Notes: generated by a model from the sequence alone, not told the origin. DNA of 64,000 nt from Minisyncoccia bacterium (GCA_041750655.1 JBGSYZ010000015.1:7119-71118), one strand, 5' to 3'; numbered from the stretch's first letter, positions 5,274 to 43,364 are shown. Translations and numbers: made by a program.

Positions 5274-5999
5274 TCAACGCTTCAGTTTACGAAACAGCAT
5301 CATAAATAAATCTTTTTGAAACTTGGCTATTGTTGGATTTTCAATAACGGTGGCAATTGGTTGAGTGTAATCGATGAAAGCTATTTTGTTGCCGTAAATA
5401 ATCTGAGAAATGCCATAGCTAAAGGGTAGAAATTCTTCTGGTACAACACGAAGAGATTCCTCGAGAGATGGTTCTCGTGAGGCGACATAGTCTGGATTAG
5501 TAATTACTAAACGTTCCAACTGCATTGCGTCGCGCATTTTTTCGTACTCTTTGGGTAAGCCTACGGTCAAAATATGTTCAGAACTTTCTGAGCTATAGCG
5601 ATAAAATTCGTCACCTTTTTTTAGAGTTTGTAAAATATCTTCAAATACTGCGTATACTCCAGCTTTACCGTCTAATCTTTTTACAATTGGTTTTGTATTA
5701 TTTTGTAGCTGGTTTAATTGAGGAATAACAGTATTTAATTCTTCATGCACTACATCCAAGAGTGATCGTAAACGTTCTGGAGGTTCAGCTGCGTAGTGGG
5801 TAAGTTTTCCTACTTGGCGCTCACTAATGAGGCCTTTGTCTTTAAGGTGGGGAAGGGCGCGGTAGATGGCTGGTCGGTGTAATTTGCTGGTACGAGAAAT
5901 ACTCGAGATAGTCTGAGTACCATATGTAAGGAGATCCATATAAATACCAATTTCAGTTTTATTAAGCCCAATAGCCTGTAATAGAGTAGTTATTTGCAT
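5274..5999 (-). CDS. TrmB-family HTH transcriptional regulator
   Basis: N-terminal winged-HTH pattern (LGLNKTEIGIYMDLL...ISSISRTSKLHRPAIYRALPHLKDKGLI) followed by a TrmB-like C-terminal domain. Confidence 0.55.
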   Translation of the reverse strand: MQITTLLQAIGLNKTEIGIYMDLLTYGTQTISSISRTSKLHRPAIYRALPHLKDKGLISERQVGKLTHYAAEPPERLRSLLDVVHEELNTVIPQLNQLQNNTKPIVKRLDGKAGVYAVFEDILQTLKKGDEFYRYSSESSEHILTVGLPKEYEKMRDAMQLERLVITNPDYVASREPSLEESLRVVPEEFLPFSYGISQIIYGNKIAFIDYTQPIATVIENPTIAKFQKDLFMMLFRKLKR

Positions 6000-6372
6000 A
6001 AAATGTATTAAATTACTACAACTTTTTATAAGTTATAATATGCTTATTTGTATTGATTGTAACATGTATTTAAATTATACACAGTACATTTTGTATTATA
6101 TTTTTACACAATTTAAATAGAATAAATTATAGTGTAGGTGTAGTTAAGGAAACAAAACCAAGACAACTACTAGCACCTTACAACGTACTAAATCTGACAA
6201 CCGAAGGAAGGTTCCTTGCAAGGCTTTTCTTATGGGGTGTTTTAGTCAGATTTAGCATCACATACAGAAAAGCCCTGCAACGAGCGCTTCCTTACGGAAG
6301 CGCTCGTTCGTGTCCCGGCTCTAGGGTAGGGTCGGGTGGTGACGCGAAGCATCTTGTAATAAGGAGTATCCA

Positions 6373-26318: not shown

Positions 26319-27440
26319 ATGACCATAAATACTATCGGTGCGCTACCGCGCCAGAGCTTGTTGCAATTTATGAGGTCTGGCTTCATCCTCGATGCAGCCG
26401 AAGAGTGTGCTTCACCAGCTTCACTCGACTTACGTCTGTCAAATGAAATGTATCGAGTACATTCAGTCGCTTTGCCCAACAGCCAAGAACGGGTGGCTGA
26501 TCTGCTTCGCTATATGGAGGCCGAACGACACGACATTAATCATCCGCTTCGTAAAGGTGAGCATTATTTGATACGCCTTCAAGAATCGCTTAAGTTACCT
26601 CGCGAATACTATGGGTTTTGCAACCCGAAATCATCAACTGGTCGCTTGGACGTGCATGTGCGTGTATTGGCTGATTTTATGCCTCGGTATGATTCAGTTT
26701 CGTCCGGTTACTCTGGGCCGCTGTGGCTCTATGTCACTCCTCGGACTTTCGGTATTAAAGTACGGGAAGGCGATACGCTGGCTCAGTTGCGACTTTTTAA
26801 TGGTGACACACGTTTGTCTCGCCACGACATGATCGGAGCCTATGCTGAGCATCAGTTTGCATGGACTTTGCAAGGTAAAAAGTTACCGTATGAAAAATTA
26901 CGTAGCTTTGATCAGGATGGTGGTTTGATGTTGTCACTTTGGTTACCTAAAGATGGTGAGGTATTTGGGTATCGGTGTGTGGCATCACCAGACAACATTC
27001 TTGATTTGTCAGATCGTGATGTGGATCCTAGAAACTACTTCATTCCAGAAGTGGTAAGGGATGGTGCAGCCAGAGCGGTAAAAGGGCGCTTCTACATTCT
27101 CTCTTGTACCGAAGCCATTGTTATCCCACCAGGGTTTGCGGCGGAAATGCGGGCTATGGATGAACGCAGCGGAGAGTTTCGTTCCCATTACGCTGGTTTC
27201 CTTGATCCTGGTTGGGGTTGGGGTGCAGACGGTACCGGAAAGGGGAGGCCGTTTACCCTTGAGTTCCGTTCCTATGCGGAGACTGTCACTATACGTCGGG
27301 GCCAACCAGTGGCCATGATTAAGTTTGAACGGATGCTCGCAGAACCTGATGTGCAGTACGATGACCCCGCTAAGTTGTCGCATTACATCAAACAGTTTCG
27401 TCCACAGTTGGCCAAGCAGTTTGCGCCTTATCCGATATGA
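26319..27440 (+). CDS. dcd: 2'-deoxycytidine 5'-triphosphate deaminase, long (double-domain) form
   Basis: ASLDLRLS matches the dCTP deaminase/dUTPase-fold signature (ASYDLRLG in E. coli Dcd); duplicated half-domains; about 370 aa as in the long DCD family. Confidence 0.55.
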   Translation: MTINTIGALPRQSLLQFMRSGFILDAAEECASPASLDLRLSNEMYRVHSVALPNSQERVADLLRYMEAERHDINHPLRKGEHYLIRLQESLKLPREYYGFCNPKSSTGRLDVHVRVLADFMPRYDSVSSGYSGPLWLYVTPRTFGIKVREGDTLAQLRLFNGDTRLSRHDMIGAYAEHQFAWTLQGKKLPYEKLRSFDQDGGLMLSLWLPKDGEVFGYRCVASPDNILDLSDRDVDPRNYFIPEVVRDGAARAVKGRFYILSCTEAIVIPPGFAAEMRAMDERSGEFRSHYAGFLDPGWGWGADGTGKGRPFTLEFRSYAETVTIRRGQPVAMIKFERMLAEPDVQYDDPAKLSHYIKQFRPQLAKQFAPYPI

Positions 27441-27452
27441 GTTCAAAAGAAA

Positions 27453-27490
27453 AAGGCCGGCGCTCCCGTAGGGGGCGCCGGCCAAATTAT
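27453..27490. terminator. bidirectional terminator between dcd and the thyX-like gene
   Basis: aaaaggccggcgctcc-cgta-gggggcgccggcc. Confidence 0.75.
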
Positions 27491-27492
27491 TT

Positions 27493-28905
27493 TTACGTAA
27501 CCACAATATCTTGTGTGCCACGTTTAAGATCAAAGCGATCAGGGCCAATGTCGGCGTAGAGTGGTATCAGCTCTCCAAAAGTCTCTTTGATATATTCTAC
27601 TACTCCATGAGCGACCATACGGACTGTTGGGTGCACGGTTGTGCCAGCCCGCAATTCAGCAATATAAACCCAGGTCGGCAAGTCACCACGGAAGTCGCAG
27701 CTCACCTGATAGCCCATCGGTATAAAATACTGCCGATTAGCAATGCTTATCTCCAACGAATCTAGGTCACTAGAAAGTTCAGTCAAATATTTTCCGACCT
27801 TGTTGGCGAACTGCTTTGGTAACTCGGAAAGATACCAAGGATGGAAGCCGATTTCTTCGGTCAATAGTGGCACCCGTTGGGTAACACTACGCTGACGTTG
27901 GATGTCTCGGTACCCCCCGTAGTCGATAGGGAACAAAAATCGCAGTGTACCTAGAACCCCAAGCTCTTTCGGAAGCTCGGTATACTGAGGTCTTTTTGCA
28001 AAAACTTCCGAGTATTTCTGAACTTCTTCGATATCAATCTCGTTACCAGTACAGACAAGCTCAGACACACTAGCATCATGGAAGTAGTGAAACTCCCGTA
28101 CCACTCCGGCCAAATACGCTTCGGTTGCCCAGTAGCGTTTTGGTTGCGGGTGATTACCGGCTACACCCAGCGACCGATTCTTACTAAAGGTCCGTTCGTG
28201 ACGAATCATCAGCAAAGTCTCGAGAGTCTCGCCGATGTTACGTACTTCGGCCAACGGGTGGTTACGAAGTTGCAATAGCCGATCATCGAATACTCGGAGC
28301 TCACCATGCCAGGCGACATTGGTGCTACAACCAGCTGGCAAAAACCCGCGAGCGACATCAAACGCTCTGGCATTAACGGTTTTTTCGTAGACAGCTTCCG
28401 ACTCGCCCTTTTTGGCAAATTTTTTGTACGGAAACCGACGCTTCATATCTTCTTTGAGCACCTTGAGCGCTTCAAGATAGAAAGCTCGCTGACGTTCCAA
28501 AATTTCATGTGAAGCACCAGTTTGCACTGGGTCAATGAACGGCTGGTTGGTAAAGTCGATATAGCGCGTAGAGCATTCTTGCCCATTGTAGAGGGCAAAT
28601 TGCTGCAGGGCCTTAGCGGCTAGCATCGAGACCCGTTCGAAGAGAACAGTGATTGAACCATTATCAGCCACCGATTTGTGGCCATAACCAACATAAGTTT
28701 GCTGCATAAATGGTCCCGGTCCTTTACTGACAAGAATATCCAATAGTTCATCGATGACCGAAGGATTGCGCGAGAACATAGCCTGGGTCATGGCCTCTTC
28801 TTCCGGGCCGATGAGGGTACCGGTGTTCATGAGAAGGATTTTGCCGCCGCTATGCAGGCCGAGTTCGGCATGTACCAGATCGGCTAGATTTTGTGGTTGA
28901 GCCAT
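27493..28905 (-). CDS. tandem-domain ThyX-like protein (putative FAD-dependent thymidylate synthase)
   Basis: Two ThyX-like RHR/serine motifs (RHERTFSKNRS and IQRQRSVTQR) in a 470-aa protein, flanked by dcd, tmk and dut. Confidence 0.4.
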   Translation of the reverse strand: MAQPQNLADLVHAELGLHSGGKILLMNTGTLIGPEEEAMTQAMFSRNPSVIDELLDILVSKGPGPFMQQTYVGYGHKSVADNGSITVLFERVSMLAAKALQQFALYNGQECSTRYIDFTNQPFIDPVQTGASHEILERQRAFYLEALKVLKEDMKRRFPYKKFAKKGESEAVYEKTVNARAFDVARGFLPAGCSTNVAWHGELRVFDDRLLQLRNHPLAEVRNIGETLETLLMIRHERTFSKNRSLGVAGNHPQPKRYWATEAYLAGVVREFHYFHDASVSELVCTGNEIDIEEVQKYSEVFAKRPQYTELPKELGVLGTLRFLFPIDYGGYRDIQRQRSVTQRVPLLTEEIGFHPWYLSELPKQFANKVGKYLTELSSDLDSLEISIANRQYFIPMGYQVSCDFRGDLPTWVYIAELRAGTTVHPTVRMVAHGVVEYIKETFGELIPLYADIGPDRFDLKRGTQDIVVT

Positions 28906-29102
28906 TGTGGTCTCCTGTCTATATTTCTAGGATCATTCCTGCTGCGAGTATAACAATCTACAATCTGTAAAGACATTGACCTTTGTTTTAATATGTTATC
29001 TGTTTGTACATGCTGAGCCATTCTTTTTATGAGTAGGGAAGTACTATTTATCCGATAGAAGTGATTTACTTACTGTAGACATGAAATAGAGGAGGACACA
29101 CT

Positions 29103-29717
29103 GTGTTCATCACATTCGAAGGAATTGGTGGGTGCGGAAAATCCACCCAAAGTAAAAAAGTTGTTGAGTATCTTCGTAAGATTGGGCATGAAGTTTTTCA
29201 TACTCGTGAGCCTGGTGGTTCGCCCGGTGCTGAAGAAATTCGCCGGTTAATTCTTGAGGGAGATGGAAATAGGTGGTCAGCTGAAACCGAAATTTTACTT
29301 TTCAACGCTGCGCGTCGTGATCATTTGGAACGGTTAGTTTGGCCAGCTCAAAAGTCTGGTAAAATAGTTATTTCTGATCGTTTTGTTGATTCCACTCGAG
29401 TATATCAGGGAGTGGCCCGGGCTGACTTGCGAGGTTTGGTAGATGAGCTTCATACCTTGGTTATAAACTACGAAGCTGATTTAACACTCGTCATAGACAT
29501 CGATGTAAAAACTGCGATGGAACGTATGAGTTTGCGTTCTGGGGAGCAAGATCGCTTTGATGAAATGGGAATGAAATTTCAACAAGATCTTCGTGATGGT
29601 TACTTGAGTTTGGGAAAAGAATTTCCCGAACGATGCATTATTGTTGATGGGTTGGGTCCACAAGATGAAGTTTTTTCAAGAGTTAAAGCAGTCGTTATGA
29701 AACGACTGGGTACATAA
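29103..29717 (+). CDS. tmk: thymidylate kinase
   Basis: P-loop FITFEGIGGCGKST; DRF/LID region; GTG start with a GAGGAGG RBS. Confidence 0.9.
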   Translation: MFITFEGIGGCGKSTQSKKVVEYLRKIGHEVFHTREPGGSPGAEEIRRLILEGDGNRWSAETEILLFNAARRDHLERLVWPAQKSGKIVISDRFVDSTRVYQGVARADLRGLVDELHTLVINYEADLTLVIDIDVKTAMERMSLRSGEQDRFDEMGMKFQQDLRDGYLSLGKEFPERCIIVDGLGPQDEVFSRVKAVVMKRLGT

Positions 29718-29719
29718 TA

Positions 29720-29758
29720 ATAGCCGGCGCCCGCAGGGCGCCGGCTAAAATCTTTTTT
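29720..29758 (+). terminator. terminator after tmk
   Basis: tagccggcgcc-cgca-gggcgccggcta followed by T6. Confidence 0.8.
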
Positions 29759-29875
29759 GCTATACCTCACCCTTACTTTAAGTCTATTTTTAAGTCGTGG
29801 TCAGTTTTATTTTATGTTTCAAATTTTTATAGGTGATATTTTTGTTTTTATTACAAATAGTCAATAATGACTGAC

Positions 29876-29904
29876 TTAAAGTTAGGGTCGAGGTATACTA
29901 CCCA
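29876..29904 (+). promoter_or_regulatory. promoter-like conserved motif upstream of dut
   Basis: ctgact-N17-tatact with spacer taaagttagggtcgagg; 22 of 26 nt identical to the motif at 36862-36888. Confidence 0.4.
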
Positions 29905-29906
29905 GC

Positions 29907-30329
29907 ATGCAAATGCGGTTTAAGAAATTACATCCTGAGGCCAAAGCACCGACCTTCGCTCATGCCACTGATGCCGGGATGGATTTATATACAATTGAAG
30001 ACTTTACTATTGAGCCAGGTGCGCACTACAATGCGCTGACGGGCATATCTCTGTTACTACCGGATGGGTATGCGGGGTTGATTTGGGACAAGGGTGGTAT
30101 TGGTATGCAACGACACATTAAGACTATCGGTGGTGTTTTTGATACTGGATACCAAGGAGATTACACTATTGGACTTGTAAACGTTGGGCATGAACCTCAG
30201 ACTTTTAAAAAAGGTGACAAAATTGCTCAAATACTGATTCAAAAAGTGGAGCATCCCGAGCTTATTGAAGTGGAGGAATTTGAACAAACCGCTCGTGGTG
30301 ATGGTCGATTTGGGAGTACTGGCAAGTAA
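29907..30329 (+). CDS. dut: dUTP diphosphatase
   Basis: dUTPase motifs (AGMDLY, GLIWDKGGIG, RGDGRFGSTG). Confidence 0.9.
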   Translation: MQMRFKKLHPEAKAPTFAHATDAGMDLYTIEDFTIEPGAHYNALTGISLLLPDGYAGLIWDKGGIGMQRHIKTIGGVFDTGYQGDYTIGLVNVGHEPQTFKKGDKIAQILIQKVEHPELIEVEEFEQTARGDGRFGSTGK

Positions 30330-32008: not shown

Positions 32009-32380
32009 ATGGCAAATGGAAAAGGACGTCATCGATCACGACTCCATGTTCGCTTTGGCGAGCGCGGTGTCAAGAAACTTTGCGTGAGCGTACCATTCAC
32101 TGATGAGTGTAAGGCGGAAGTGGTGGGTTTGATCGAGGCCTATCTCGAACGGACCAAACCACAGCCCGGGCGCAAACGATTGGCCAACCCAGATTCACAC
32201 TCGACAAGCGTTAAGTTCCTGCTGGGACAGGGCGGACAAGATTTGGGCATTCAGTCTGTGACGGTTTCACTGGCTGATTTGAGGACTGGCCGTACACAAA
32301 AGCTGTTTAGCCGTCTTGATGAAGCTCGCAACGCAGCGATTGCTAAGCTCGACCCACCGCAATCCATGGCTGCTGAATGA
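32009..32380 (+). CDS. hypothetical basic protein (GC-rich, about 57% GC)
   Basis: ORF with an AAGGGAG RBS and its own terminator (ccagggaattttccctgg, 32480-32515); composition unlike its neighbours. Confidence 0.4.
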   Translation: MANGKGRHRSRLHVRFGERGVKKLCVSVPFTDECKAEVVGLIEAYLERTKPQPGRKRLANPDSHSTSVKFLLGQGGQDLGIQSVTVSLADLRTGRTQKLFSRLDEARNAAIAKLDPPQSMAAE

Positions 32381-32598: not shown

Positions 32599-35500
32599 AT
32601 GAATACTAAAAAGCAAGGTGAATCGCATAGCGAGAGAAGGTACCCTGGGGTAAATGGTCGTGGAAACGACTCGGTGGAAGTGGTTGAAACAAACCAAAAA
32701 AGTGATGTTGCACTGCGTGAAGAAGCCATACTAGCTTTTTGGCAGGAACACGACATATTTAAAAAGAGTGTAGACACTCCAGCTGGTGAAAAACCGGTCG
32801 GAGATTTTGTTTTTTATGATGGTCCACCGTTCGCTACTGGTTTACCGCACTACGGGCATATTTTGGCTAGTACTATCAAAGACGCTATCCCGCGGTTTTG
32901 GACAATGAATGGGTATCATGTGCGCAGGCAGTGGGGATGGGACTGTCACGGCTTGCCACTGGAGAATTTGATTGAGAAAAAATTAGGCTTAGCTACCAAA
33001 CGAGACATTGAAGAGTACGGAGTGAAGAATTTTAACGAAGCAGCCCGCGGAGCAGTGATGGAATATGCCGATGAATGGGCGCGAATAATTCCCCGCATGG
33101 GTCGCTGGGCCGACATGGAAAACGACTACAAAACCATGGATAGTTCCTACACAGAAAGTGTGTGGTGGGTGTTTTCGGAACTTAATAAAAAAGGAAAAGT
33201 GTTTGAAGGCTTTAAGTCGATGCACTTATGTCCGCGTTGTGGCACTACTTTATCTAACTTTGAGGTGAATCTGGGTTACAAAGACATAAAGGATATTTCA
33301 GTATACGTTAAGCTACCACTGATTGATGAACCAGATACGTCACTATTGGTGTGGACGACTACACCATGGACGCTACCGGGCAATATGGCGGCGGCGGTAC
33401 ATAATGAGTTTGATTATGTACAAGTTCGAGTTACTACAGATGACGGAGAAGAAAATTTGATTTTGGCTAAAGGTCGCCTCGCTGCGCTCGGCGACCTACC
33501 GTACGAAATAGTGGAAGAAATGAAAGGGGCTGACTTAGTGGGTAAACGCTATGTGCCACCGTTTGATTATTGGAGTAAGCAAGACTTTGAGGGCAAGGAG
33601 AACGCTTGGCAGATTTTTCATGCTGAGTATGTCGAGCTTGGCGAAGAAGGTACCGGTGCGGTGCACCTCGCGCCGGCCTACGGAGCGGATGATATGGAAC
33701 TGGCCAAGGAACATGGTCTACCCTTGGTGCATCACGTCGATGAGAACGGACACTTCAAGGAGTTCGTGACTGATTTCGCCGGGCAACTGGTGAAGCCCAA
33801 AGACGATGATGACTCGGGGGTAACCCACCTCGATGCTGACATTGAAATTGTGAAAGCACTGAAAGAGAGTGGCCGACTATTTAAAAAAGAAAACATCACG
33901 CACAGCTACCCACACTGTTGGCGATGTGATACACCGCTTCTTAACTACGCGACGACGTCGTGGTTTGTTGATGTACCTTCCATAAAAGACGAATTAGTCA
34001 CAGAAAACGAAAAGGTACAGTGGGTGCCAGAACATGTCGGGACGAATCGTTTTGGTAAGTGGCTTGATGGTGCTCGGGATTGGGCGGTCAGTCGCCAGCG
34101 CTACTGGGGCGCACCGCTACCGATTTGGCGTAACCCAGAAACTAAGGAATACCATGTCTTTGGTTCCCTTAAAGAAATTCAAGAATTTACTCCCAAGAGT
34201 GGCAATGAGTATTGGTTGATGCGGCACGGCGAAAGTGAAAGCAATATCAAAGGTATTATCAGTTCCAATAAAGACAATAAGGATGGCCTAACCGACAAAG
34301 GGAAGAAACAGGTTGAGAAGGCGGCTGCCATGCTACCTAAGGATATAGATATTGTTATTCACTCTGGTTTTGAGCGCACCCGCGAAACCGCCGAGCTCGT
34401 CGCGGCTGCCCTCGGCAACGCGGAAGTAATCGAAGATGATCGAGTGCGAGAGTTAGATTTGTCCGATGACTTCGAAGGAAAAAGTTGGGATGAGTACAAC
34501 GCACAGTTTGGTAGTTGGGAAGAGCGTTATACCAAGGAACTTGATGGTTCAGAAAATCGTCGTGATGTGCAAAAGCGTATGGGTTCTTTTTTGTCGACCG
34601 TTGAAGAAAAATATCAAAACAAGAAAGTACTTATTATTAGTCACGCCGGAACGCTATTTGCCTTAGAGTGTGCTGCCCAAGGTTTAAATCCGAAAGAAGC
34701 AGAAGTTCACTTTGCCAACGGCTCTCACTACCTGGATAATGCCCAAATTCGTACTTTAGACTTCACTCCTATTCCGCACAACGACAACTACGTGCTCGAC
34801 TACCACCGACCATACATCGATAATTTTGTAGTAGAAAAAGACGGAGTGCGTCTCGAGCGGGTGCCAGACGTATTTGATTGCTGGTTTGAGAGCGGTTCGA
34901 TGCCGTACGCGCAATATCATTATCCGTTTGAAAATGAAAAAGAGTTTGAGAAAAAATTATTTCCTGCCAACTTTATTGCTGAAGGACTCGATCAAACTCG
35001 CGGTTGGTTTTACTCACTCATAGTACTCGGTACAGCGTTGTTTGGAAAAAGTCCGTTTGAAAATGTGATTGTAAACGGCTTAGTAATGGCCGAAGATGGG
35101 AAGAAGATGAGTAAGTCACTACAGAACTACCCAGATCCGATGGATGTGGCTGATAGTGCTGGGGTAGATGCTATGCGATTTTATTTATTGTCTTCCTCAA
35201 TTGTCCGCGGTGAGGATTTAAATTTTTCTGAGAAAGGAGTGCTGGAATTACAGCGTAAAAATATTGGCCGATTACACAATGTGCTCACTATGTTTAAAGA
35301 ATATAGTATAGATGCAAAAACAGCATCCCACGCTGTTTCAGCGAGCGATAATTCTCCCCATGTCTTAGATACATGGATCATCGCTCGCCTCAATGAGCTC
35401 ATCGCCGAAACTACTGCTGGCTATCAAGCCTATGAACTTGATAAAGCAACGCGACCAATTACCGACTTCATTGACGACGTATCCGTCTGGTACTTACGAC

Positions 35501-36204
35501 GCAGTCGAGAAAGACTGAAAGGTGTCGGGAAGTCCGGGGGACTTTCCGACACAGAAGACAAAGAGCTAACTTTAGGTACGATGCGACATGTACTAAAAAA
35601 CTTAGCTCTGGTGATGGCCCCCGTCATGCCTTTCTATGCAGAGTATCTGTGGCAAGCGGTAAAAGAAGAAAAAGAAGCAGAGAGCGTACACTTAGGAGTT
35701 TGGCCAAAGGCAGGAGTGATTGACGATGAGCTCCTAGCTGAAATGAAGTTAACTCGAGAAGTCGTTTCACAAGCTTTGGAAGCCAGAGCTAAGTCTGGGT
35801 TGAAGGTACGACAACCACTTTCTGCACTAACCTCGCCAACTATGGTCGGTGATGATTTTGTAGACATTGTTAAAGATGAAGTAAACGTTAAAGCAGTCAT
35901 TTTTGATGAATCTGTCGAGAGTGTTGTTCTCAATGAAACAATTACCCCCGAGCTCCAGGCGGAAGGCGACACTCGTGAATTAATCCGAGCTATTCAAGAT
36001 ATGCGTAAACAGGCTGGGTTACAAACTGCAGATAGAATCAAGCTCACTATTCAGACTTCTGATGGTGGAGAGGCAATTGTAAAACTATTCCAAACAGACA
36101 TCCAAAAAACTGTTGGTGCGACGGAGGTGGTTTTCGGTGACGCACATGGTAGTGAAATCAAAGCGGGTGAGCATGAGTTTACTGTCGAGATAACTAAAGT
36201 GTAG
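32599..36204 (+). CDS. ileS: isoleucyl-tRNA synthetase (type 2) carrying an inserted histidine-phosphatase-like domain
   Basis: HIGH (PHYGHIL), GWDCHGLP, WAVSRQRYWGAPLPIW, WFESGSMPYAQ and KMSKS (KKMSKSL) motifs. An extra segment of about 190 aa (residues ~535-725) carries RHGESESN. The start codon is uncertain. Confidence 0.85.
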   Translation: MNTKKQGESHSERRYPGVNGRGNDSVEVVETNQKSDVALREEAILAFWQEHDIFKKSVDTPAGEKPVGDFVFYDGPPFATGLPHYGHILASTIKDAIPRFWTMNGYHVRRQWGWDCHGLPLENLIEKKLGLATKRDIEEYGVKNFNEAARGAVMEYADEWARIIPRMGRWADMENDYKTMDSSYTESVWWVFSELNKKGKVFEGFKSMHLCPRCGTTLSNFEVNLGYKDIKDISVYVKLPLIDEPDTSLLVWTTTPWTLPGNMAAAVHNEFDYVQVRVTTDDGEENLILAKGRLAALGDLPYEIVEEMKGADLVGKRYVPPFDYWSKQDFEGKENAWQIFHAEYVELGEEGTGAVHLAPAYGADDMELAKEHGLPLVHHVDENGHFKEFVTDFAGQLVKPKDDDDSGVTHLDADIEIVKALKESGRLFKKENITHSYPHCWRCDTPLLNYATTSWFVDVPSIKDELVTENEKVQWVPEHVGTNRFGKWLDGARDWAVSRQRYWGAPLPIWRNPETKEYHVFGSLKEIQEFTPKSGNEYWLMRHGESESNIKGIISSNKDNKDGLTDKGKKQVEKAAAMLPKDIDIVIHSGFERTRETAELVAAALGNAEVIEDDRVRELDLSDDFEGKSWDEYNAQFGSWEERYTKELDGSENRRDVQKRMGSFLSTVEEKYQNKKVLIISHAGTLFALECAAQGLNPKEAEVHFANGSHYLDNAQIRTLDFTPIPHNDNYVLDYHRPYIDNFVVEKDGVRLERVPDVFDCWFESGSMPYAQYHYPFENEKEFEKKLFPANFIAEGLDQTRGWFYSLIVLGTALFGKSPFENVIVNGLVMAEDGKKMSKSLQNYPDPMDVADSAGVDAMRFYLLSSSIVRGEDLNFSEKGVLELQRKNIGRLHNVLTMFKEYSIDAKTASHAVSASDNSPHVLDTWIIARLNELIAETTAGYQAYELDKATRPITDFIDDVSVWYLRRSRERLKGVGKSGGLSDTEDKELTLGTMRHVLKNLALVMAPVMPFYAEYLWQAVKEEKEAESVHLGVWPKAGVIDDELLAEMKLTREVVSQALEARAKSGLKVRQPLSALTSPTMVGDDFVDIVKDEVNVKAVIFDESVESVVLNETITPELQAEGDTRELIRAIQDMRKQAGLQTADRIKLTIQTSDGGEAIVKLFQTDIQKTVGATEVVFGDAHGSEIKAGEHEFTVEITKV

Positions 36205-36205
36205 T

Positions 36206-36772
36206 GTGGCCTACGCTACGTATACAACCGAAGCGATTGTGTGTGGCAGTAAAGATTCTAATACTTCCGACCGTTCGTACTTACTGTTTACACAAAGAGC
36301 TGGTATGTTGTGGGCCAGTGCCAGGAGTGTGCGGACGGAAAAATCCAAACAGCGCTACGCGCTCGTTGATTTTTCCGTCATCCGAGTTTCACTTGTGCGT
36401 GGGAAAAGTGGTTGGCGCATTGGTAGTGTTGAATCACTGTTGAATCCATTTATGCAGAGTGATAACCGACAGGCTCGGGCTTTTATACAATTAGTAGTAC
36501 GTTCACTTCGAAGATTTCTTCACGGAGAAGAACCAGCCCCTGCCGTTTTTGAAGATGCTAAGGGAGCACTTTACTTGGCTACTAAAAATCAAAACTTTGA
36601 GGAGATTGGGAATATATACATGTTGCGACTTTTAGAAAAATTAGGCTACGTGAGTAGTAAAACTTCATTTGCCCCGCTACTGGCTGGCAGTATTCTTTCT
36701 CAGACTAAAGAAAAGGTTCCGGCTGAAGGTCTCAAAGCCATTGATATTGCCTATAGAGCCAGTCATTTATAG
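36206..36772 (+). CDS. recO: DNA repair protein RecO-like (short form)
   Basis: N-terminal OB-fold pattern (EAIVCGSKDSNTSDRSYLLFTQRAGMLWASARSVRTEKSK). GTG start 1 nt after the ileS stop. Confidence 0.55.
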   Translation: MAYATYTTEAIVCGSKDSNTSDRSYLLFTQRAGMLWASARSVRTEKSKQRYALVDFSVIRVSLVRGKSGWRIGSVESLLNPFMQSDNRQARAFIQLVVRSLRRFLHGEEPAPAVFEDAKGALYLATKNQNFEEIGNIYMLRLLEKLGYVSSKTSFAPLLAGSILSQTKEKVPAEGLKAIDIAYRASHL

Positions 36773-36895: not shown

Positions 36896-38836
36896 ATGGC
36901 TGAAGAGCAGAAGAAACGAGAAGAGATGGATTCGCTCCGTGAGCGGTTGTATGATCGTGGCCTAACTCCTAAGCCACACGAACGAACCGTATTACAACCA
37001 CTTGAACATAAAGACGTGCCACACTCGTGGGGCCAGCCTACGCTTGAGTCAAAAGAATTGGAAGCAAGTACTGATACGCCCGGGGTAAAGCCAGTTGGTT
37101 ATTTTAATGTACACACTATGCCTAAGAGGAAAAAGTATCGAACCATTTTTGTACTATTTGGGGTATTGTTCTTTTTGGTTACTTTAATTGTTTCCAGTAG
37201 CTATATGTTCTTGGGTGGCAATACTATTTCCAACGACAATATTTCTGTTTCAATCACTGGTCCGTTTTCAGTTGGTGGTGGGGAAGTATTACCACTTCAG
37301 ATTGGAGTAACCAACCAAAACACCTCTCCAATCAAAGCGGCTACTCTTATTGTGCGCTATCCATTAGGTACTCAATCACCAGATGAAGAAGGAAAAGAAA
37401 TCCAGCGCGAGGCTATTCCCCTCGAAAGTATTGGTGCTGGAGAAACAATCAATATTCCGGTTAGAGCCATCATATTTGGCGAAGAAGATGAAGAGAAACA
37501 AATCCAGGCTGAAGTTGAGTACCAACTCAAAGGTTCAAACGGTATTTTCTTCAAAGAAGCCGAACCTCATATTTTCAAAATAAATTCATCACCAGTGACC
37601 ATTTCTATTGAAAGTCTCAAACAAGTATCTTCTGGTCAACCGGTTGATGTCATTATGACCGTTCGTTCCAATTCAAGTACTGCTCTGCACGACCTAGTCG
37701 TGCGGGCGGAGTATCCGTTTGGTTTTGATTACACTTCGTCAAAACCAAATCCTGTTTCTGGTCAAAACGTCTGGCTTATTCCTGAACTCAAGCCAGATGA
37801 ATCTTTCAGTATCAATGCTCGAGGGGTTGTGTCAGGTACCAAAAGTGATGAGCGTATCGTTCGAGCTTCGGTTGGGGTAGCTAACGACACCAATGCGTAT
37901 CGCTTAGCGTCGATTTTTAGCTCCTCAGATTTTCAATACGAATTTGAACAAGAATTCTTGGCATTTGATGTTCGTATAAATGGCAACACCAGTGATACAG
38001 TCGTGGTTGATAGAGGTGATCAGGTACAAGTACGAGTGGATTTTACCAATCCACTTGAAGACGCTATTTATGATGCTTCACTCGAAATTGGTCTAACCGG
38101 GACTGCTCTTGATGAAGGACGTGTAAAAGTACAAAACGGTTTTTATGATTCAATTAAGAATGCTATTTTATACGATCGAACTACCAATGGTGCTTTAGAA
38201 AAAATATTACCAGGTAAAACGGTCCAATTAGCCTTTTCCATGGACTCCGACGCTTTTGTTACCCAAACTCCAGAAATAAATTTAATAATTGATGGTAAAG
38301 CGGCTCGAGTGCAAGAAAGTAACGTACCAGAAACCTTGAAGGGTAATGATACTCGTACTATCAAGTTCGCGAGTCAGGTTAATCTACTGTCTAGCATCAC
38401 TCCGCAAAGTGGACTGATTCCGCCAGTAGCAGAAAAACTTACTCAATACACGGTAGCGATGCGTATAGAAAGCGGAACCAATGACCTTATTAATGGCGAA
38501 GTGACAGCGAGCTTACCAAACTATGTATCGTGGCTTGATTTAACAAGTGGTGATGGTAGGGTAGAGTTTCGTCCGAGTAGTCGCACGGTGATTTGGGATG
38601 TTGGCAATATCGACAATAACGACTCCGCTACTATGACATTTACGATCGGTTTCTTACCGAGTATTTCCCAAGTCGGGGAAACTCCAACCTTGGTCAGTAA
38701 CCAAAACTTTAAAGCTACTGATCGATTTACCGGCACGATTATCCGCGACAGTACTGCCGCGCTTACGACAATTTTGTCCCCAGAAACTGGCTATGGTCAG
38801 AAGAGTGGCGAAGTCAGACGGACGGAAAATGATTAA
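36896..38836 (+). CDS. single-pass membrane-anchored extracytoplasmic protein with repeated beta-rich domains
   Basis: Charged N-terminus, TM (IFVLFGVLFFLVTLIV), then about 540 aa of Ig-like/DUF11-like segments. Confidence 0.5.
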   Translation: MAEEQKKREEMDSLRERLYDRGLTPKPHERTVLQPLEHKDVPHSWGQPTLESKELEASTDTPGVKPVGYFNVHTMPKRKKYRTIFVLFGVLFFLVTLIVSSSYMFLGGNTISNDNISVSITGPFSVGGGEVLPLQIGVTNQNTSPIKAATLIVRYPLGTQSPDEEGKEIQREAIPLESIGAGETINIPVRAIIFGEEDEEKQIQAEVEYQLKGSNGIFFKEAEPHIFKINSSPVTISIESLKQVSSGQPVDVIMTVRSNSSTALHDLVVRAEYPFGFDYTSSKPNPVSGQNVWLIPELKPDESFSINARGVVSGTKSDERIVRASVGVANDTNAYRLASIFSSSDFQYEFEQEFLAFDVRINGNTSDTVVVDRGDQVQVRVDFTNPLEDAIYDASLEIGLTGTALDEGRVKVQNGFYDSIKNAILYDRTTNGALEKILPGKTVQLAFSMDSDAFVTQTPEINLIIDGKAARVQESNVPETLKGNDTRTIKFASQVNLLSSITPQSGLIPPVAEKLTQYTVAMRIESGTNDLINGEVTASLPNYVSWLDLTSGDGRVEFRPSSRTVIWDVGNIDNNDSATMTFTIGFLPSISQVGETPTLVSNQNFKATDRFTGTIIRDSTAALTTILSPETGYGQKSGEVRRTEND

Positions 38837-38852
38837 CTAACCTTAAGATTTT

Positions 38853-40235
38853 ATGGCAGATAAAGATGACACAATGGAGAAGATTGTTGCGCTCTGTAAG
38901 CGCCGGGGTTTTGTGTTTCAGGGGAGTGAGATTTATGGTGGTCTTCGTGGTACGTGGGATTTTGGTCCACTCGGGGTAGTGCTCAACAACAACATCAAGC
39001 GTGAATGGTGGAAGATGTTTGTCGAAAGTCGCGAGGATATGTACGGTCTGGATGCTGCTATCATCATGAATGCCAAAGTGTGGGAAGCGTCAGGTCACAC
39101 AGGGGCGGGTTTTTGTGACCCGTTAGTAGAAGATGTCGAAACTGGTGAACGTTACCGAGCTGATCATCTTTTAAAAGATATTGGTGTAAATGCTGATGGT
39201 TTGGCTCTCGAGGAAATAGACGCCATAATCCGCGAGGAAGGAATCAAAAGTCCAAAAGGTAATGATTTGTCTGAAGCAAGACAATTTAATCTCATGTTTG
39301 AAAGTAGAGTTGGTGCAACAGCCGGAGACGAGGGGAAGGTATATCTTCGGCCAGAGACGGCACAGGGAATTTTTGTAAACTTTAAAAATGTAGTCGATTC
39401 AATGTCACCTAAGATGCCGTTTGGTATCGCTCAGATAGGAAAAGCGTTTCGTAACGAAATCGCTCCTCGCGAGTTTCTTTTTCGCGTGCGGGAATTTGAA
39501 CAGATGGAAATTGAGTACTTTGTGAAAGAGGCAGAATGGGAAACTGAGTTTGAAAAACTCCGCCAAGATATTGTGAAGTGGCACGAGCACCTTGGGCTTT
39601 CCAGTGAAAACATTCGCGAGTTTGAGGTGCCGGAAAATGACCTAGCCCATTATTCTAAACGAACCATTGATTTTGAATACAATTATCCGGGTAAAGGCTT
39701 TGATGAGCTAGCGGGGTTTGCGTATCGAACTGACCACGATCTAAAAAACCACATGGAGGCTAGCGGAGTTTCTATGGAATACATTGAACCAGATGGTTCG
39801 CGCTTTATTCCACACGTACTGGAACCTTCTTTCGGCGTTGGCCGCGCCCTCACTGCCGTACTGTGTGAAGCCTACACTGAGGACGAAATGGGTGGGGAAG
39901 TACGAACGTATCTGAAGTTACCGGCTCACTTGGCCCCGTACCGCGTAGCGGTCTCACCACTACTGCGCAATAAACCACAGCTCGTAGAGAAAGCGCGCGA
40001 AGTTTTTACTATGCTCAAAGCTGAGTTTGGTAACGTGGCGTGGGATGATAATGGTAATGTTGGAAAACGTTACCGCCGCCAAGACGAAATCGGTACGCCG
40101 CACTGCATTGTGATTGATTTTGAAACGTTAGGTGAAGAACAGCCAGATCTAAAAGATACCGTTACAGTTCGTGACCGTGATACAGGCGAGCAGACACGTC
40201 TAGTAATTGCTGAGTTGGTAAACTATCTGAAGTAG
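38853..40235 (+). CDS. glyQS: glycyl-tRNA synthetase (alpha2 type)
   Basis: KRRGFVFQGSEIYGGLRGTWDFGPLG N-terminus; class II motifs; 460 aa. Confidence 0.9.
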   Translation: MADKDDTMEKIVALCKRRGFVFQGSEIYGGLRGTWDFGPLGVVLNNNIKREWWKMFVESREDMYGLDAAIIMNAKVWEASGHTGAGFCDPLVEDVETGERYRADHLLKDIGVNADGLALEEIDAIIREEGIKSPKGNDLSEARQFNLMFESRVGATAGDEGKVYLRPETAQGIFVNFKNVVDSMSPKMPFGIAQIGKAFRNEIAPREFLFRVREFEQMEIEYFVKEAEWETEFEKLRQDIVKWHEHLGLSSENIREFEVPENDLAHYSKRTIDFEYNYPGKGFDELAGFAYRTDHDLKNHMEASGVSMEYIEPDGSRFIPHVLEPSFGVGRALTAVLCEAYTEDEMGGEVRTYLKLPAHLAPYRVAVSPLLRNKPQLVEKAREVFTMLKAEFGNVAWDDNGNVGKRYRRQDEIGTPHCIVIDFETLGEEQPDLKDTVTVRDRDTGEQTRLVIAELVNYLK

Positions 40236-40281: not shown

Positions 40282-42858
40282 CTACTGTATTCCGGAGGCA
40301 GTGAACGTTGGTGAAAGCGGTTGTAGTGCTATACCGTCATACCCAACTATTCCAGTGTCTTGTACCGGGTAGTTTTTCCAGGTTTCGAGTAACTCATCAA
40401 TGGGGTTTTGAACTGAGGTGTAGGACATCTGAGCTCCGCCACGACCAAAAATTACTTTGTCACCATCCTTAAATGGTGTAGTTGGAGTAATTCTTACAAT
40501 CCCAGCGTTTTGGTCCTGCCAAACGGCTGTAAATCCAGAATGGGTCCAGCCAGCACCCTGGTTAATCTCAAAACCAAGTACTTCTGTGAAGTACGACTTT
40601 GAAGTATCAAGCGGTGCATCACCTCGCTTTAGACGTGGAGTTGTAAAAGTCCCGGCATTATTAGACGTAACATTTACGTCAGCATAACTACCATCAACAC
40701 TCCATGTTGTGCTTGTGAATGCAGGTTGTGTGTAATCAACATAACCCAATGGTTCAAGTACAGCTACTGCCATGTGGCGAGCAACAAGTAAAAGACCATC
40801 ATAATTGTTGTCTCGTGGGTGTGAGTAATCTATAAGTTTTCCAGTACTGTTGAATTCTCCTATGGCATGATAAGTAACAAGGCGATTCCATGGTAGTGAG
40901 AACGATTGTACTCGAGGATCTGCAAAGAAGTTTTCTAAAGTCTGATTGATTCGCTCCACGTTTACCATATTGAAGTTTACACCTCCAGCCACTAGATCAG
41001 TGGCGTTTTTCATGTCACCTGTAGTCGGCAGGAATCGATTGGGACCAAATTCTAGGTATTTAGTGCGACTGCGGCTGAATATACCCCGACCTGGGTCATT
41101 AGGGTCAGCAGTAGTGACGTCCCAGAGGCAGTGATCTACATTGCCGCCACGAACGTTTTTGGTGCCGAGGGTAAATGGCGTACCATCCCAATTCTCGCAC
41201 ATAGTAAACGGACTGTACCATAGAGGGAAGTTGTACCCAGCTGATTTATCAGCTGCCCACCAACTAGTAGCCATGATACCGATTTCAGAACCTCGGGAAC
41301 GTACCCAGTTCACCGTATCTTCTAAGTGGGTCCAGCGACGCTTAGTATCACTATCATTCATCAAACTACCTCGACTTGTACCTGAGTGCATAAAGTCAAC
41401 GAACATAAATTTATGTCCAGGAGCATTTTGGTAGAGAATGTTAGAGAGCTGGGCCATACTAGCAGTAAGGTTGTTTCCATTTTTAACATTGTGATAGAGA
41501 AGTTGAGCAGTAGGCGCAGTATCATTCACTACGTATAGCACTTGTAGTGTGTCGTCGTTTAATACTGGCATCGCTCCATTAGCAGCGATGAAGTTTCTAT
41601 TCTGATATGTATTGAGCATGTGTTGAAACTCTGACTGACTCAGCATGCCAAAGATTGTACCCGGCGAGAAAGTGTTCGTTCCTGAAGTGAAGACAGTTGG
41701 ATTGGCAGCCAATCGAACACTTACAGTACGCCATGGCGCACCATCAATATTAGTTACTATAAGTGAACCGCTCCAGTTACCGGTTGCGTCAGTGGTCGCA
41801 ACTACGTTCCAGTTACCAGTGCCAGGGTCGTATCCTTCGATTACGTCTCCGGCTGTCGCAGTACCACTAATCGGGACGAGGGCAGTATTTCCTCCATTAA
41901 CCTTATCGATATCGTAAATCATTCGATCTTGAGGAATATCAATGAGTGTCAGGGTTGTGTTAGTTGAAGTGCCGGTTGATACGATGGTAAAGCCACTCAC
42001 CACCAACGCAGCAGACACATTACCCGCTGCATCAGTCACCGTCAGCGAACAATCGCTATACGTACCAACTGCCAGTGGCCCGAAAGTTATCGTTGTGTTG
42101 CCTGTATTCACAGAAGTTATCGGGGCTCCGCATGAGCCAGCGAATGTCACTGTACCGGCTTCATCGGTACTAAAAGTATAATCAGGAGTAGTGTCAGTGG
42201 TCGTAGCTGCGACTGGAGTGACTTCCGCTAGGACTGGGGCGGTGGTGTCGGTTGGGGGTGTTCCTACATCCGTGACCGCACCGTATTGCAGTTTAGTGTT
42301 CCAGGTGGTGGCGCTACCATTTTCATAAAAGATCGATGTGCCATTTGCATCTTGGTAGTCGATGCTATCGACCACGAAGGCGCCTGACTTGTTGAAGTTG
42401 GTCGTGTTTGCTGAGTTGATGAGTTTTGGCAAGAGTACAGAGTTACCAGTCATGGTCCTGCTCGCTAGGATTGCCCCATCAGCAGTAATAGTAAGGAGAC
42501 TAGGAGTCGCTGCAACCGTGAGATTAAATGGTCCGGTTGGAATGGCTGCTGCAACAACCACCACATCAGCCTGCCTGACCTTGTTTGCATCAGCAATACG
42601 CACCCGCAACCGCCCATCGGCTAGGGTACTTATATACGTGTCAAAGTTGTTTGATGCCAAAAAAGTGTCCTGACCAGTGGTGGGAATGAGACCGTTGAAC
42701 GTAATGGTAAAACCAGCAGTACTGCCAGGGTTTACCGTAATGACGTCGCCATTATCGAAGGCAACGGCGGCATTTGCCGTATTTGTGTAGCTGGCAAGTA
42801 CGCCAACACTGAACGTAATTACGAGTAAAATGCTTAAGAGTTTGTAAAACATATGCAT
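40282..42858 (-). CDS. large secreted Thr-rich protein with Ig-like domains (function unknown)
   Basis: Signal peptide (MHMFYKLLSILLVITFSVGVLASYTNTANA); Thr/Gly-rich beta repeats; the C-terminal half is possibly hydrolase-like. Confidence 0.55.
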   Translation of the reverse strand: MHMFYKLLSILLVITFSVGVLASYTNTANAAVAFDNGDVITVNPGSTAGFTITFNGLIPTTGQDTFLASNNFDTYISTLADGRLRVRIADANKVRQADVVVVAAAIPTGPFNLTVAATPSLLTITADGAILASRTMTGNSVLLPKLINSANTTNFNKSGAFVVDSIDYQDANGTSIFYENGSATTWNTKLQYGAVTDVGTPPTDTTAPVLAEVTPVAATTTDTTPDYTFSTDEAGTVTFAGSCGAPITSVNTGNTTITFGPLAVGTYSDCSLTVTDAAGNVSAALVVSGFTIVSTGTSTNTTLTLIDIPQDRMIYDIDKVNGGNTALVPISGTATAGDVIEGYDPGTGNWNVVATTDATGNWSGSLIVTNIDGAPWRTVSVRLAANPTVFTSGTNTFSPGTIFGMLSQSEFQHMLNTYQNRNFIAANGAMPVLNDDTLQVLYVVNDTAPTAQLLYHNVKNGNNLTASMAQLSNILYQNAPGHKFMFVDFMHSGTSRGSLMNDSDTKRRWTHLEDTVNWVRSRGSEIGIMATSWWAADKSAGYNFPLWYSPFTMCENWDGTPFTLGTKNVRGGNVDHCLWDVTTADPNDPGRGIFSRSRTKYLEFGPNRFLPTTGDMKNATDLVAGGVNFNMVNVERINQTLENFFADPRVQSFSLPWNRLVTYHAIGEFNSTGKLIDYSHPRDNNYDGLLLVARHMAVAVLEPLGYVDYTQPAFTSTTWSVDGSYADVNVTSNNAGTFTTPRLKRGDAPLDTSKSYFTEVLGFEINQGAGWTHSGFTAVWQDQNAGIVRITPTTPFKDGDKVIFGRGGAQMSYTSVQNPIDELLETWKNYPVQDTGIVGYDGIALQPLSPTFTASGIQ

Positions 42859-43009: not shown

Positions 43010-43357
43010 ATGGCTGATTCAGTAAAAGTGTACACGGCGGTTGATGGCTTCCTGTGCCAACAAGGCTATCACGCTCATCTGAAGCGAAAGACGGTTGACG
43101 AGCACTGGCTACAACACACCATCGCCGAACTCAATGCTTGCGCCTGCGCGTGTTTTGGAAAGGGTTGTTGTATGCAAACGTACTTCACCAACCCGTTTGC
43201 AGCTATTGGCAATATCCCGGGCTGGAGCAGCGCGCATGAAGCTGAAACGCTTAAAGCCGGCGGTTTCCTCACACGGGAAGCTGAAGAGACATTAAGACCA
43301 GGGTCGCTTCCGGCGCTTCTTCTTGTCTTGGTTTTTAGGCCTACTGTGATACAGTAA
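43010..43357 (+). CDS. hypothetical Cys-rich small protein
   Basis: AGGAGG RBS before the ATG at 43010 (ORF track starts at 42986); CACACFGKGCC cysteine cluster. Confidence 0.35.
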   Translation: MADSVKVYTAVDGFLCQQGYHAHLKRKTVDEHWLQHTIAELNACACACFGKGCCMQTYFTNPFAAIGNIPGWSSAHEAETLKAGGFLTREAEETLRPGSLPALLLVLVFRPTVIQ

Positions 43358-43364
43358 TTTTACT

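Follow-up and report, generated by a model that had tools for sequence, protein, structure and literature searches.

We analysed a 64,000-nucleotide stretch of DNA, hereafter the window, from a Minisyncoccia bacterium (GCA_041750655.1; JBGSYZ010000015.1:7119-71118). The window contains ileS, the gene for isoleucyl-tRNA synthetase (IleRS), and within its open reading frame (ORF), in the middle of the CP3 subdomain of the synthetase, lies a segment with the sequence signatures and the predicted fold of a complete histidine phosphatase (Table 1). A preliminary description, made from the sequence alone, had recorded a complete IleRS ORF with its landmarks in the normal order, and this was borne out. 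The whole protein scored 878 bits against the NCBIfam model for ileS (TIGR00392), above the cutoff of 621.4; its Pfam match to tRNA-synt_1 is broken in two by a match to His_Phos_1; and the canonical motifs follow one another in order, with GTGAVH (residues 351-356) between TTTPWTLPGN and KMSKS. As a homolog set we used the 120 best-scoring protein clusters, which are 64-80% identical to the window protein and come from NCBI, JGI, ENA, Logan and Tara. Across this set the motifs HIGH, GWDCHGLP, TTTPWT, GTGAVH, DCWFESG and KMSKS were about 100% conserved. Since the IleRS signatures are essentially invariant, the synthetase part should, as judged from its sequence, be fully active.

The window enzyme is a type-2 (eukaryote-like) IleRS, as indicated by its best sequence and fold matches, the IleRS of human, yeast, Candida and T. 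thermophilus and the IleRS2 of Priestia megaterium, and by its C-terminal DUF5915 domain. In sequence alignments, type-2 enzymes of known structure (9w01, 6ldk, 8wnd, 1ile and 8c8u) were matched with E values of about 1e-196 to 1e-214, whereas the matches to the type-1 enzymes 1ffy, 8c9e and 8wni were much weaker (1e-75 to 1e-86). Foldseek ranked 8c8v, the IleRS2 of P. megaterium, first for the synthetase body, and TMt values to the solved type-2 enzymes were 0.69-0.77. The whole body is alike in the window protein and in the P. megaterium (8c8v), yeast (8wnd), human (9w01) and T. thermophilus (1ile) enzymes, and comprises the Rossmann fold with HIGH and KMSKS, the CP core, the CP1 editing domain, CP2, CP3, the anticodon-binding domain and DUF5915. 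Unlike the window protein, however, the solved IleRS are all free of insertions in CP3. The models for the mupirocin-resistance enzymes MupA and MupB (NF000257 and NF000258) gave 657-667 bits, against a cutoff of 1900.

Table 1. Features of ileS and its downstream neighbour; positions are counted from the first nucleotide of the window.
Feature	Position	Strand	Basis or remark
ileS, type-2 isoleucyl-tRNA synthetase with a nested phosphatase domain	32599..36204	+	1201 aa, one uninterrupted reading frame
HIGH signature (HYGH, residues 84-87)	32848..32859	+	98-100% conserved in 120 homologs
CP1 editing-domain threonine-rich motif TTTPWTLPGN (residues 253-262)	33355..33384	+	conserved; editing domain intact
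CP3 first half (hairpin and short helix, ...LPIWRNPETKEYHVFGSLKEIQEFT), about residues 498-531	34090..34191	+	alignment to ScIleRS and human IleRS, with published CP3 limits
CP3 flanks of the insert, where the knuckle cysteines would stand	34108-34140 and 34819-34860	+	compare L073, L064, L135, L148
Inserted domain, predicted histidine phosphatase (branch 1), with junction peptides PKSGN... and ...PHNDNY (residues 532-731)	34192..34791	+	Pfam, structure models, Foldseek
RHGxxxxN motif: R542, putative nucleophile H543, N549	34222..34245	+	invariant in 120/120 homologs
R593, putative second phosphate-binding arginine	34375..34377	+	invariant in 120/120 homologs
E618, putative general acid/base, followed by the phosphatase-type E-x3-[GA]-x2-[FLY]-E-G-K-x-W	34450..34452	+	E618 invariant in 120/120 homologs
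H682, putative second catalytic histidine (ISHAG)	34642..34644	+	invariant in 120/120 homologs
CP3 second half (VLDYHRPYIDNFVVEKDGVRLERVPDVF), running into DCWFESG	34792..34884	+	alignment, junction comparison
KMSKS signature (residues 836-840)	35104..35118	+	motif conservation among homologs
Anticodon-binding domain (Pfam Anticodon_1, residues 924-1076)	35368..35826	+	Pfam
C-terminal DUF5915 domain (residues 1108-1201), typical of type-2 IleRS	35920..36201	+	Pfam
recO, conserved downstream neighbour in the syntenic block	36206..36772	+	Pfam RecO_N/RecO_C; synteny

Position and identity of the inserted domain

In the alignment with human cytosolic IleRS (9w01_B), residues 39-531 of the window protein map onto chain residues 14-492, and the alignment resumes with residue 732 at chain residue 496. 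The insert thus consists of residues 532-731, 200 residues in a place where the human enzyme has about three; about 190 extra residues at 34200-34790 had been noticed before. CP3 has been delimited to residues 459-526 in ScIleRS (PMC7955072) and 473-534 in CaIleRS (PMC7191050), so that the insertion point, at about residue 492 of the yeast and human proteins, falls in mid-CP3, after a β-hairpin and a short helix (...VFGSLKEIQEF) and before ...LDYHRPYID. The phosphatase is therefore plugged into the middle of the CP3 surface subdomain, which remains on both sides of it. The idea that this connective region usually measures only a few dozen residues needs amending, as CP3 spans some 60-70 residues and is split, not replaced, by the insert. 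A zinc motif is present in the CP3 of the T. thermophilus enzyme (PMC7191050). The corresponding knuckle cysteines (CxxC ... CxC/CxxC) flank the insert as two complete pairs in 27 of 82 loci with an embedded phosphatase and are gone in 50 of the 82; all four are lost in the window protein and in each of its 120 closest homologs. Thus, many relatives keep the motif around the insert, whereas the lineage of the window has lost it.

The junction peptides PKSGN and P726-H727-N728-D729 are strongly conserved among the embedded forms, and the base composition shows no break (GC content 0.455 in the insert, 0.458 in the remainder of ileS). An intein or another self-splicing or mobile in-frame element was considered and rejected: no Hint, intein or homing-endonuclease family of Pfam was found in the protein, the junctions read ...TPKSGN/EYW... 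and ...PHND/NYVLD..., with HN followed by D, and the insert is a complete enzyme of metabolic type.

A search of the whole protein with Pfam His_Phos_1 (PF00300) gave a match at residues 539-709 with E=3.1e-33 and 115.5 bits (gathering cutoff 21.7), and the excised segment by itself gave E=9.7e-35. An RHG[EQ]xxxN signature and an ISHAG element resembling the region of the second catalytic histidine had been pointed out in the preliminary description; they correspond to R542-H543-G544...N549 and to H682. The whole putative catalytic set (R542, H543, N549, R593, E618 and H682) is invariant in 120/120 homologs, as are the family-typical residues T565, G568, E652, R660 and G695. Apart from such positions, no part of the catalytic half varies as much as the insert: its mean column entropy is 1.69, that of the Rossmann and editing parts 0.46-0.93, and no more than 7% of the insert's columns are the same throughout the homolog set. 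The domain appears catalytically equipped and, judging from these residues, is apparently active.

Structure models also agree with a discrete domain. The insert was modelled with a pLDDT of 93-98 within the full-length protein, and the excised domain with a pLDDT of 96 and a pTM of 0.92 (AlphaFold2, AF2), so that the models portray it as a domain that folds independently. Its first and last β-strands lie in the same sheet, that is, its ends are adjacent, as suits a nested insertion. The best Foldseek match was PspA (4ij6; prob 1.00, TM 0.79). The matches with TM values of 0.70-0.79 (rmsd, root mean square deviation, 2.6-3.5 Å) were to small branch-1 phosphatases: PspA (4ij5/4ij6), PhoE/YhfR (1h2e/1ebb), CobC (6e4b/6nru), GpgP (Rv2419c, 4qih) and the riboflavin-pathway phosphatase HFP (9mmh); an Entamoeba phosphoserine phosphatase fell in the same TM range. 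Like the insert, the small branch-1 enzymes have about 190-210 residues, the full catalytic set and a phosphatase-type motif after the catalytic glutamate; they are 22-29% identical to it and free-standing, whereas the insert is nested in, or encoded beside, an IleRS. Dimeric dPGM-type phosphoglycerate mutases ranked lower (TM 0.60-0.69). Moreover, the consensus after the catalytic glutamate, E-[LFIY]-[DQ]-x-[GA]-x-x-[FLY]-E-G-K-x-W, follows the phosphatase pattern; the mutase-specific motif of dPGM at this place is E-R-H-Y-G...N-K. By sequence and by modelled fold, the insert is a branch-1 histidine phosphatase that is nearer to the small phosphatases than to the mutases.

None of the specific families that were tried could be assigned. 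The archaeal dPGM model NF038349 (dPGM_arch) gave 77-80 bits for the insert and 108.6 bits for a free-standing homolog (see below), against a cutoff of 225, and TIGR01258 gave 22.5 bits against 81.7, in line with residues after the glutamate that are unlike ERHYG...NK. The PspA model NF045917 gave 59-64 bits (cutoff 350), despite PspA being the closest solved structure; the model for the α-ribazole phosphatase CobC, TIGR03162, gave 74-78 bits (cutoff 162.9); and SixA, TIGR00249, was matched over its N-terminal third only, with 33-39 bits (cutoff 74.5). As the dPGM, CobC, PspA and SixA cutoffs are all missed, the substrate is not readable from homology. No family among the PADLOC models of anti-phage defence was matched by the insert, the whole protein or the free-standing homolog.

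Distribution, variants and a free-standing counterpart

All 120 best-scoring clusters carry PF00300 together with the IleRS domains, with inserts of 197-208 residues. In a scan of species representatives, with one genome per species, at least 583 IleRS relatives were found, and in the best 80 of these (41-68% identity) the phosphatase was inside the IleRS ORF, at the same site, in every case. The 80, all genomes of Parcubacteria/Paceibacteria, are labelled Paceibacterota, Nomura-, Adler-, Taylor-, Zambryski-, Wolfe- and Magasanikbacteria and Minisyncoccia, and include the closed chromosomes CP060229.1 and OY970126.1. When the insert by itself was searched exhaustively with HMMER against 1.84 billion representatives, 739 clusters below 1e-10 were returned; among the best 150 representative clusters, 108 were IleRS or fragments of IleRS, and the hexad RHNREH was present in 130 of the 162 domains that these 150 contain. 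All embedded forms shared the same junction.

These observations bear on the possibility that an error of assembly or gene calling fused ileS to a phosphatase gene. Beyond the general risk that attends metagenome assemblies nothing speaks for such an artefact, which we regard as having a negligible probability: the same in-frame architecture and junction recur in 120 clusters, in 80 species-representative genomes and in many metagenomes of different sources, closed chromosomes carry it, and the composition is unbroken. The proposal that the segment is a genuine in-frame domain insertion and not a chimeric join thus held on every side, by the profile match, the catalytic residues, the confidently predicted fold and the more than 100 independent assemblies that are alike. 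A lineage-specific expansion of IleRS lacking a conserved His/Arg constellation had been named as the finding that would speak against it; the feature did turn out to be lineage-wide, but the constellation is invariant.

A few carriers bear odd labels (Spirochaetia, Azotimanducaceae, "uncultured Saccharibacteria"), which are probably noise of binning or naming. The public names of the carriers, at NCBI and elsewhere, are generic ("class I tRNA ligase family protein", "isoleucyl-tRNA synthetase", "hypothetical protein"), and a nested copy is easily overlooked in annotation at the level of genes.

Variant architectures were also found, all of them singletons in the databases. Two tandem copies of the phosphatase occupy CP3 in P0186, P0140 and P0219, and four in the fragment P0131, whereas P0164, P0182 and P0200 have a second copy at another site, after residue ~903 of the query, between the stem-contact fold and the anticodon-binding domain. 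Every complete copy keeps the R-H-x-R-E-H set; in P0131 the third copy has Ala in place of Asn, and the fourth is cut by the end of the fragment. Copies 2 and 3 of P0131 cluster together, as do both copies of P0227, a free tandem protein, which points to duplication within the gene. P0242 (L164, 4001-8188), a complete IleRS ORF of 1395 residues on an 11.6-kb contig, has, besides the CP3 phosphatase, an extra P-loop kinase-like domain (protein residues ~724-905) inserted after the WFESG...motif, past query residue ~771. This domain gave weak matches to AAA_18, AAA_33 and Zeta_toxin and sub-threshold matches to kinases, but no solved relative and no kinase family. In P0225 (L081, 977-2140), a complete ORF known from a single contig, a phosphatase 37% identical to the insert is the C-terminal part of a protein of the Sua5/YciO/YrdC (threonylcarbamoyl-AMP synthase) family. 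P0223 (L165, 4001-7201) consists of the N-terminal two-thirds of an IleRS with an IS200/REP-type Y1 tyrosine transposase domain in the editing domain, a phosphatase in CP3 and a C-terminal GNAT domain; its ORF stops after the GNAT domain, and the C-terminal half of the IleRS is not on the contig. Because it ends prematurely we discounted it as evidence; either a paralog in decay or a faulty assembly may lie behind it.

Among the non-IleRS matches were free-standing proteins of about 190 residues, 34-40% identical to the insert, which share with it the catalytic residues and an N-x-Y motif ahead of RHG. The family of free forms has at least 120 clusters at 90% identity; one member comes from Nealsonbacteria, likewise a Parcubacterium. 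At JGI the free form is called "broad specificity phosphatase PhoE", and one homolog is entered as "probable phosphoglycerate mutase". In locus L086 the gene order is pyrH - argS - phosphatase (5675-6238, 187 residues) - ileS - ORF - recO - a DUF11/CLIPPER protein, and the ileS, of 991 residues and without an insert, begins 6 nt past the stop of the phosphatase gene. The right half of this order is common to the window, in which ileS is followed by recO and by the gene for a DUF11 protein (36896-38836). The order argS-phosphatase-ileS was found again in L083/L084 and in one ENA contig; in L088 the phosphatase immediately precedes an ileS that is 56% identical to that of the window, and in L082 it is convergent with an insert-less ileS. 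The UMP kinase gene upstream of argS (L086, 3383-4018, with equivalents in L091-L157) is of the archaeal type, scoring above the cutoff of TIGR02076, and not of the bacterial pyrH type.

A metagenome scan seeded with four free-standing members then gave 73 loci, 70 of them with a free-standing phosphatase. Of the 56 loci with enough flank, 52 had ileS downstream of the free phosphatase on the same strand, within 300 nt in 46 of them, and most gaps were between -15 and +25 nt; argS was upstream in 57 of 66 loci. The free gene is thus predicted to be co-transcribed with ileS in these sister lineages. Embedded forms occurred in the same neighbourhood in L135 and L148. Embedded-type genomes, in turn, have argS as the immediate upstream neighbour of ileS in 45 of the 61 loci that could be evaluated, and recO downstream in 53 of 80. 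The synteny of free- and embedded-type loci defines two states, argS-phosphatase-ileS-recO and argS-ileS::phosphatase-recO. We conclude that neighbour gene and CP3 insert represent one and the same locus in two states, and the locus is a clear natural illustration of the way in which a nested-domain protein originates.

The nested form may have originated when the neighbouring phosphatase gene was relocated locally, or duplicated, into the CP3 loop. The change from free to embedded is the more likely direction, being the simpler one: it takes one in-frame insertion, as against a clean excision together with a new ORF. Neighbour-joining (NJ) trees, which were built without an outgroup for IleRS with the insert masked and for the domain alone, and which have very short internal branches, weigh against this view in that they leave both the direction and the number of events unsettled. 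In the IleRS tree the lineages with a free gene formed a long-branched clade of 21 as well as the base of the other half, and so stood on both sides of the midpoint root, and one large clade was composed mainly of embedded forms, if with a degree of interleaving. The tree of the domain was star-like.

The components of the window protein are ordinary, but their combination in a synthetase with an added catalytic domain is not, and we found no prior description of a histidine phosphatase in or next to IleRS in the full-text literature. Aminoacyl-tRNA synthetases are among the most conserved enzymes, the bacterial ones rarely have extra catalytic domains, and insertions in the catalytic domain with the Rossmann fold are as a rule modules that are small, structural or bind tRNA. 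In the present case, an entire second enzyme appears to sit in CP3 of an essential synthetase across a class of ultra-small (candidate phyla radiation) bacteria. What is unusual is that an enzyme is nested inside the catalytic domain, that the feature spans a whole bacterial class, and that both evolutionary states of the locus can be observed. Partial precedents exist. The GNAT-containing IleRS (NF040702, "ileS_w_GNAT") form a curated exception family of bacterial IleRS with an extra enzymatic domain; that domain, however, is an acetyltransferase, and the window protein scored 331 bits against the cutoff of 1999 and had no GNAT domain in the Pfam scan. In the bifunctional RNase H/CobC-like acid phosphatases of the Rv2228c type (NF005567) a branch-1 phosphatase is joined to a nucleic-acid enzyme, and the phosphatase half of the model matches the insert with 67-72 bits; there the fusion is end to end and not nested, and the window protein misses the cutoff of 326. 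P0225 joins a phosphatase of the same subfamily, as a C-terminal fusion, to another adenylate-forming, translation-related enzyme. A histidine phosphatase domain also occurs in tRNA-related machinery in Tfc7 (tau55), a subunit of yeast TFIIIC, where its role is unclear; Tfc7 is a eukaryotic transcription factor with an N-terminal phosphatase domain and is unrelated to aminoacylation.

Possible roles of the phosphatase

We propose that the window protein is a bifunctional polypeptide, which would combine a fully equipped type-2 IleRS with a complete histidine phosphatase resembling PhoE, PspA and CobC. Under the standard mechanism of the superfamily, H543 would attack the terminal phosphate of a substrate held by R542, R593, N549 and H682, a phospho-histidine intermediate would form, and E618 would protonate the leaving group. 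The domain would act as a phosphomonoesterase on a small soluble substrate and would be made in a 1:1 ratio with IleRS. The fusion may have been tolerated at first and then become fixed, since a clean excision would be an improbable event, and no part in the mechanism of aminoacylation would be needed. That an autonomous small-molecule phosphomonoesterase has been locked into a permissive loop of IleRS is the most economical reading, and one to which we give an even chance of being right. Two observations that might suggest coupling to aminoacylation are uninformative. Since separation is improbable once an in-frame fusion has occurred, the persistence of the fusion is no evidence of coupling; and since pyrH, argS, the phosphatase gene, ileS and recO are functionally unrelated housekeeping genes, their adjacency explains the origin of the insert and neither its purpose nor any coupling. 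With adjacency and persistence set aside, and with small-molecule phosphatases as the nearest relatives, an autonomous module is the simplest account. CP3 and two further loops thus prove to be permissive sites for insertions, which is of use for IleRS engineering. Two points, however, weigh against an autonomous module. The conserved junction peptides hint at a fixed geometry, possibly at functional integration more than loose tethering, and the 2-4 tandem copies, the second site at ~903 and the Sua5/TsaC fusion would all have to be coincidences if the phosphatase were a pure hitch-hiker.

It is also possible, though on balance we think it improbable, that IleRS has in the phosphatase a dedicated partner, which serves as a trans subunit in some Parcubacteria and as a nested domain in others, with a chemistry that feeds back on the aminoacylation cycle; in a variant of this reading it would be a missing phosphoglycerate mutase (PGM) or another core enzyme in hiding. 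Were it such a partner, this IleRS would be the first case of an aminoacyl-tRNA synthetase whose own reaction is served by another active site, one for phosphoryl transfer. A more specific form, coupling to adenylate-forming chemistry, appears unlikely: the phosphatase would clear a phosphorylated by-product or ligand of the synthetic site, namely pyrophosphate (PPi), AMP or another nucleotide, and so pull or tune aminoacylation. The nested domain would do so in cis, and the product of the adjacent gene in trans. The fusion of a 37%-identical homolog to Sua5/TsaC, another enzyme that converts ATP to an acyl-AMP and PPi, would fit this idea, and the 2-4 catalytically intact copies in some IleRS suggest that throughput matters. 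The kinase-like P-loop domain of the P0242 IleRS may likewise be cited for coupling, but it is a singleton without family assignment. All three insertion sites are in the KMSKS-bearing second half of the Rossmann fold, and the junction peptides are conserved; the neighbouring genes (pyrH, argS, ileS and recO), in contrast, are unrelated housekeeping genes, whose adjacency proves nothing. We know of no branch-1 histidine phosphatase that acts as a pyrophosphatase. A Ppa-like gene was not found by tblastn, with E. coli Ppa as an approximate query, in the window and 1.23 Mb of related loci, a weak negative in favour of coupling; since no more than a few percent of any one genome is sampled in this way, absence cannot be concluded from it. 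Against coupling, at least one Parcubacterium has been drawn with an H+-PPase (PMC5220378). If coupling to aminoacylation does exist, it would represent a new kind of accessory activity in synthetases.

A macromolecular substrate seems quite unlikely. The domain could heal phosphorylated tRNA 3' ends left by a nuclease or toxin, or could dephosphorylate IleRS or another protein as a switch. The host enzyme binds tRNA, the pairing of a kinase-like domain with a phosphatase in P0242 recalls the end-healing logic of Pnkp, and the superfamily includes the protein phosphatases SixA, PGAM5 and Sts-1; the SixA model did register the insert, at 33-39 bits, but its cutoff of 74.5 is missed and the nearest structures are those of small-molecule enzymes. 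To our knowledge, Sua5/TsaC does not bind tRNA, and no histidine phosphatase known to us has RNA ends as its substrate. A regulator would not readily account for tandem amplification. Moreover, in the complex of yeast IleRS with tRNA the acceptor stem makes few contacts with the catalytic domain, and CP3 is not named among them (PMC11685878).

Slightly less credible still is the view that a central-metabolic enzyme, the PGM reported missing from several Parcubacteria clades, is riding on ileS. Jaffe et al. (2020) found PGM to be absent in several shallow Parcubacteria clades, where forms too divergent to be detected were considered possible (PMC7304191), and this gap would be filled. Embedded and free forms alike have the 194-residue archaeal dPGM model as their best NCBIfam match, with sub-threshold scores of 77-109 bits, and one homolog bears the mutase label at JGI mentioned above. 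Conversely, the dPGM equivalog cutoffs are missed widely (225-421 bits would be needed), the residues after the catalytic glutamate are of the phosphatase type and not those of the dPGM motif, and the solved dimeric dPGMs gave TM values of 0.60-0.69 as against 0.75-0.79 for phosphatases. If the domain nonetheless were such a core enzyme, metabolic reconstructions based on hidden Markov models (HMMs) would have missed it because it lies inside a translation gene.

We are slightly more sceptical still of a self-protection module, which would inactivate a phosphorylated inhibitor of IleRS or reverse the action of a toxin kinase, with the GNAT domain of other IleRS as a counterpart, by analogy with detoxification of the MccE type. 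The family of GNAT-containing IleRS and the GNAT domain of P0223 could be seen in this light, but P0223 is truncated and doubtful. The co-insertion of kinase-like and GNAT domains is circumstantial support, as is the presence in Parcubacteria of MccH-like HIT phosphoramidases that act against antibiotics of the aminoacyl-nucleotide type (PMC7157772). The PADLOC defence models, however, were unmatched, and the feature is a stable, class-wide one of a housekeeping gene, not patchy as resistance genes are. We know of no phosphorylated natural inhibitor of IleRS, and aminoacyl-adenylate mimics are not terminal phosphomonoesters. Finally, a catalytically dead filler that replaces or braces the zinc knuckle of CP3 is very improbable: the loss of the four knuckle cysteines in 120/120 closest homologs would leave room for a structural role of the insert, but its six catalytic residues stay invariant in a domain that otherwise drifts, both Cys pairs persist next to the insert in 27 of 82 embedded loci, and the free-standing homologs keep the same catalytic residues.

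Other genes of the window

Two further aminoacyl-tRNA synthetase genes lie near ileS, both without a phosphatase domain. One, at 38853-40235, encodes a class II enzyme (tRNA-synt_2b and HGTP_anticodon); the other, at 43350-44801, encodes a class I enzyme weakly similar to the C-terminal half of IleRS. No Pfam match at E<=1e-3 was found for an ORF of 858 residues at 40282-42858 on the minus strand or for one of 123 residues at 32009-32380 on the plus strand, immediately upstream of ileS. Just upstream of ileS, at 26319-30329, is a cluster of genes for pyrimidine deoxynucleotide metabolism, which encodes a two-domain dCTP deaminase (373 residues), a thymidylate kinase and a dUTPase. The cluster also contains, on the minus strand, an unusually long ThyX-like ORF of 470 residues, in which the match to Thy1 is confined to residues 72-228.

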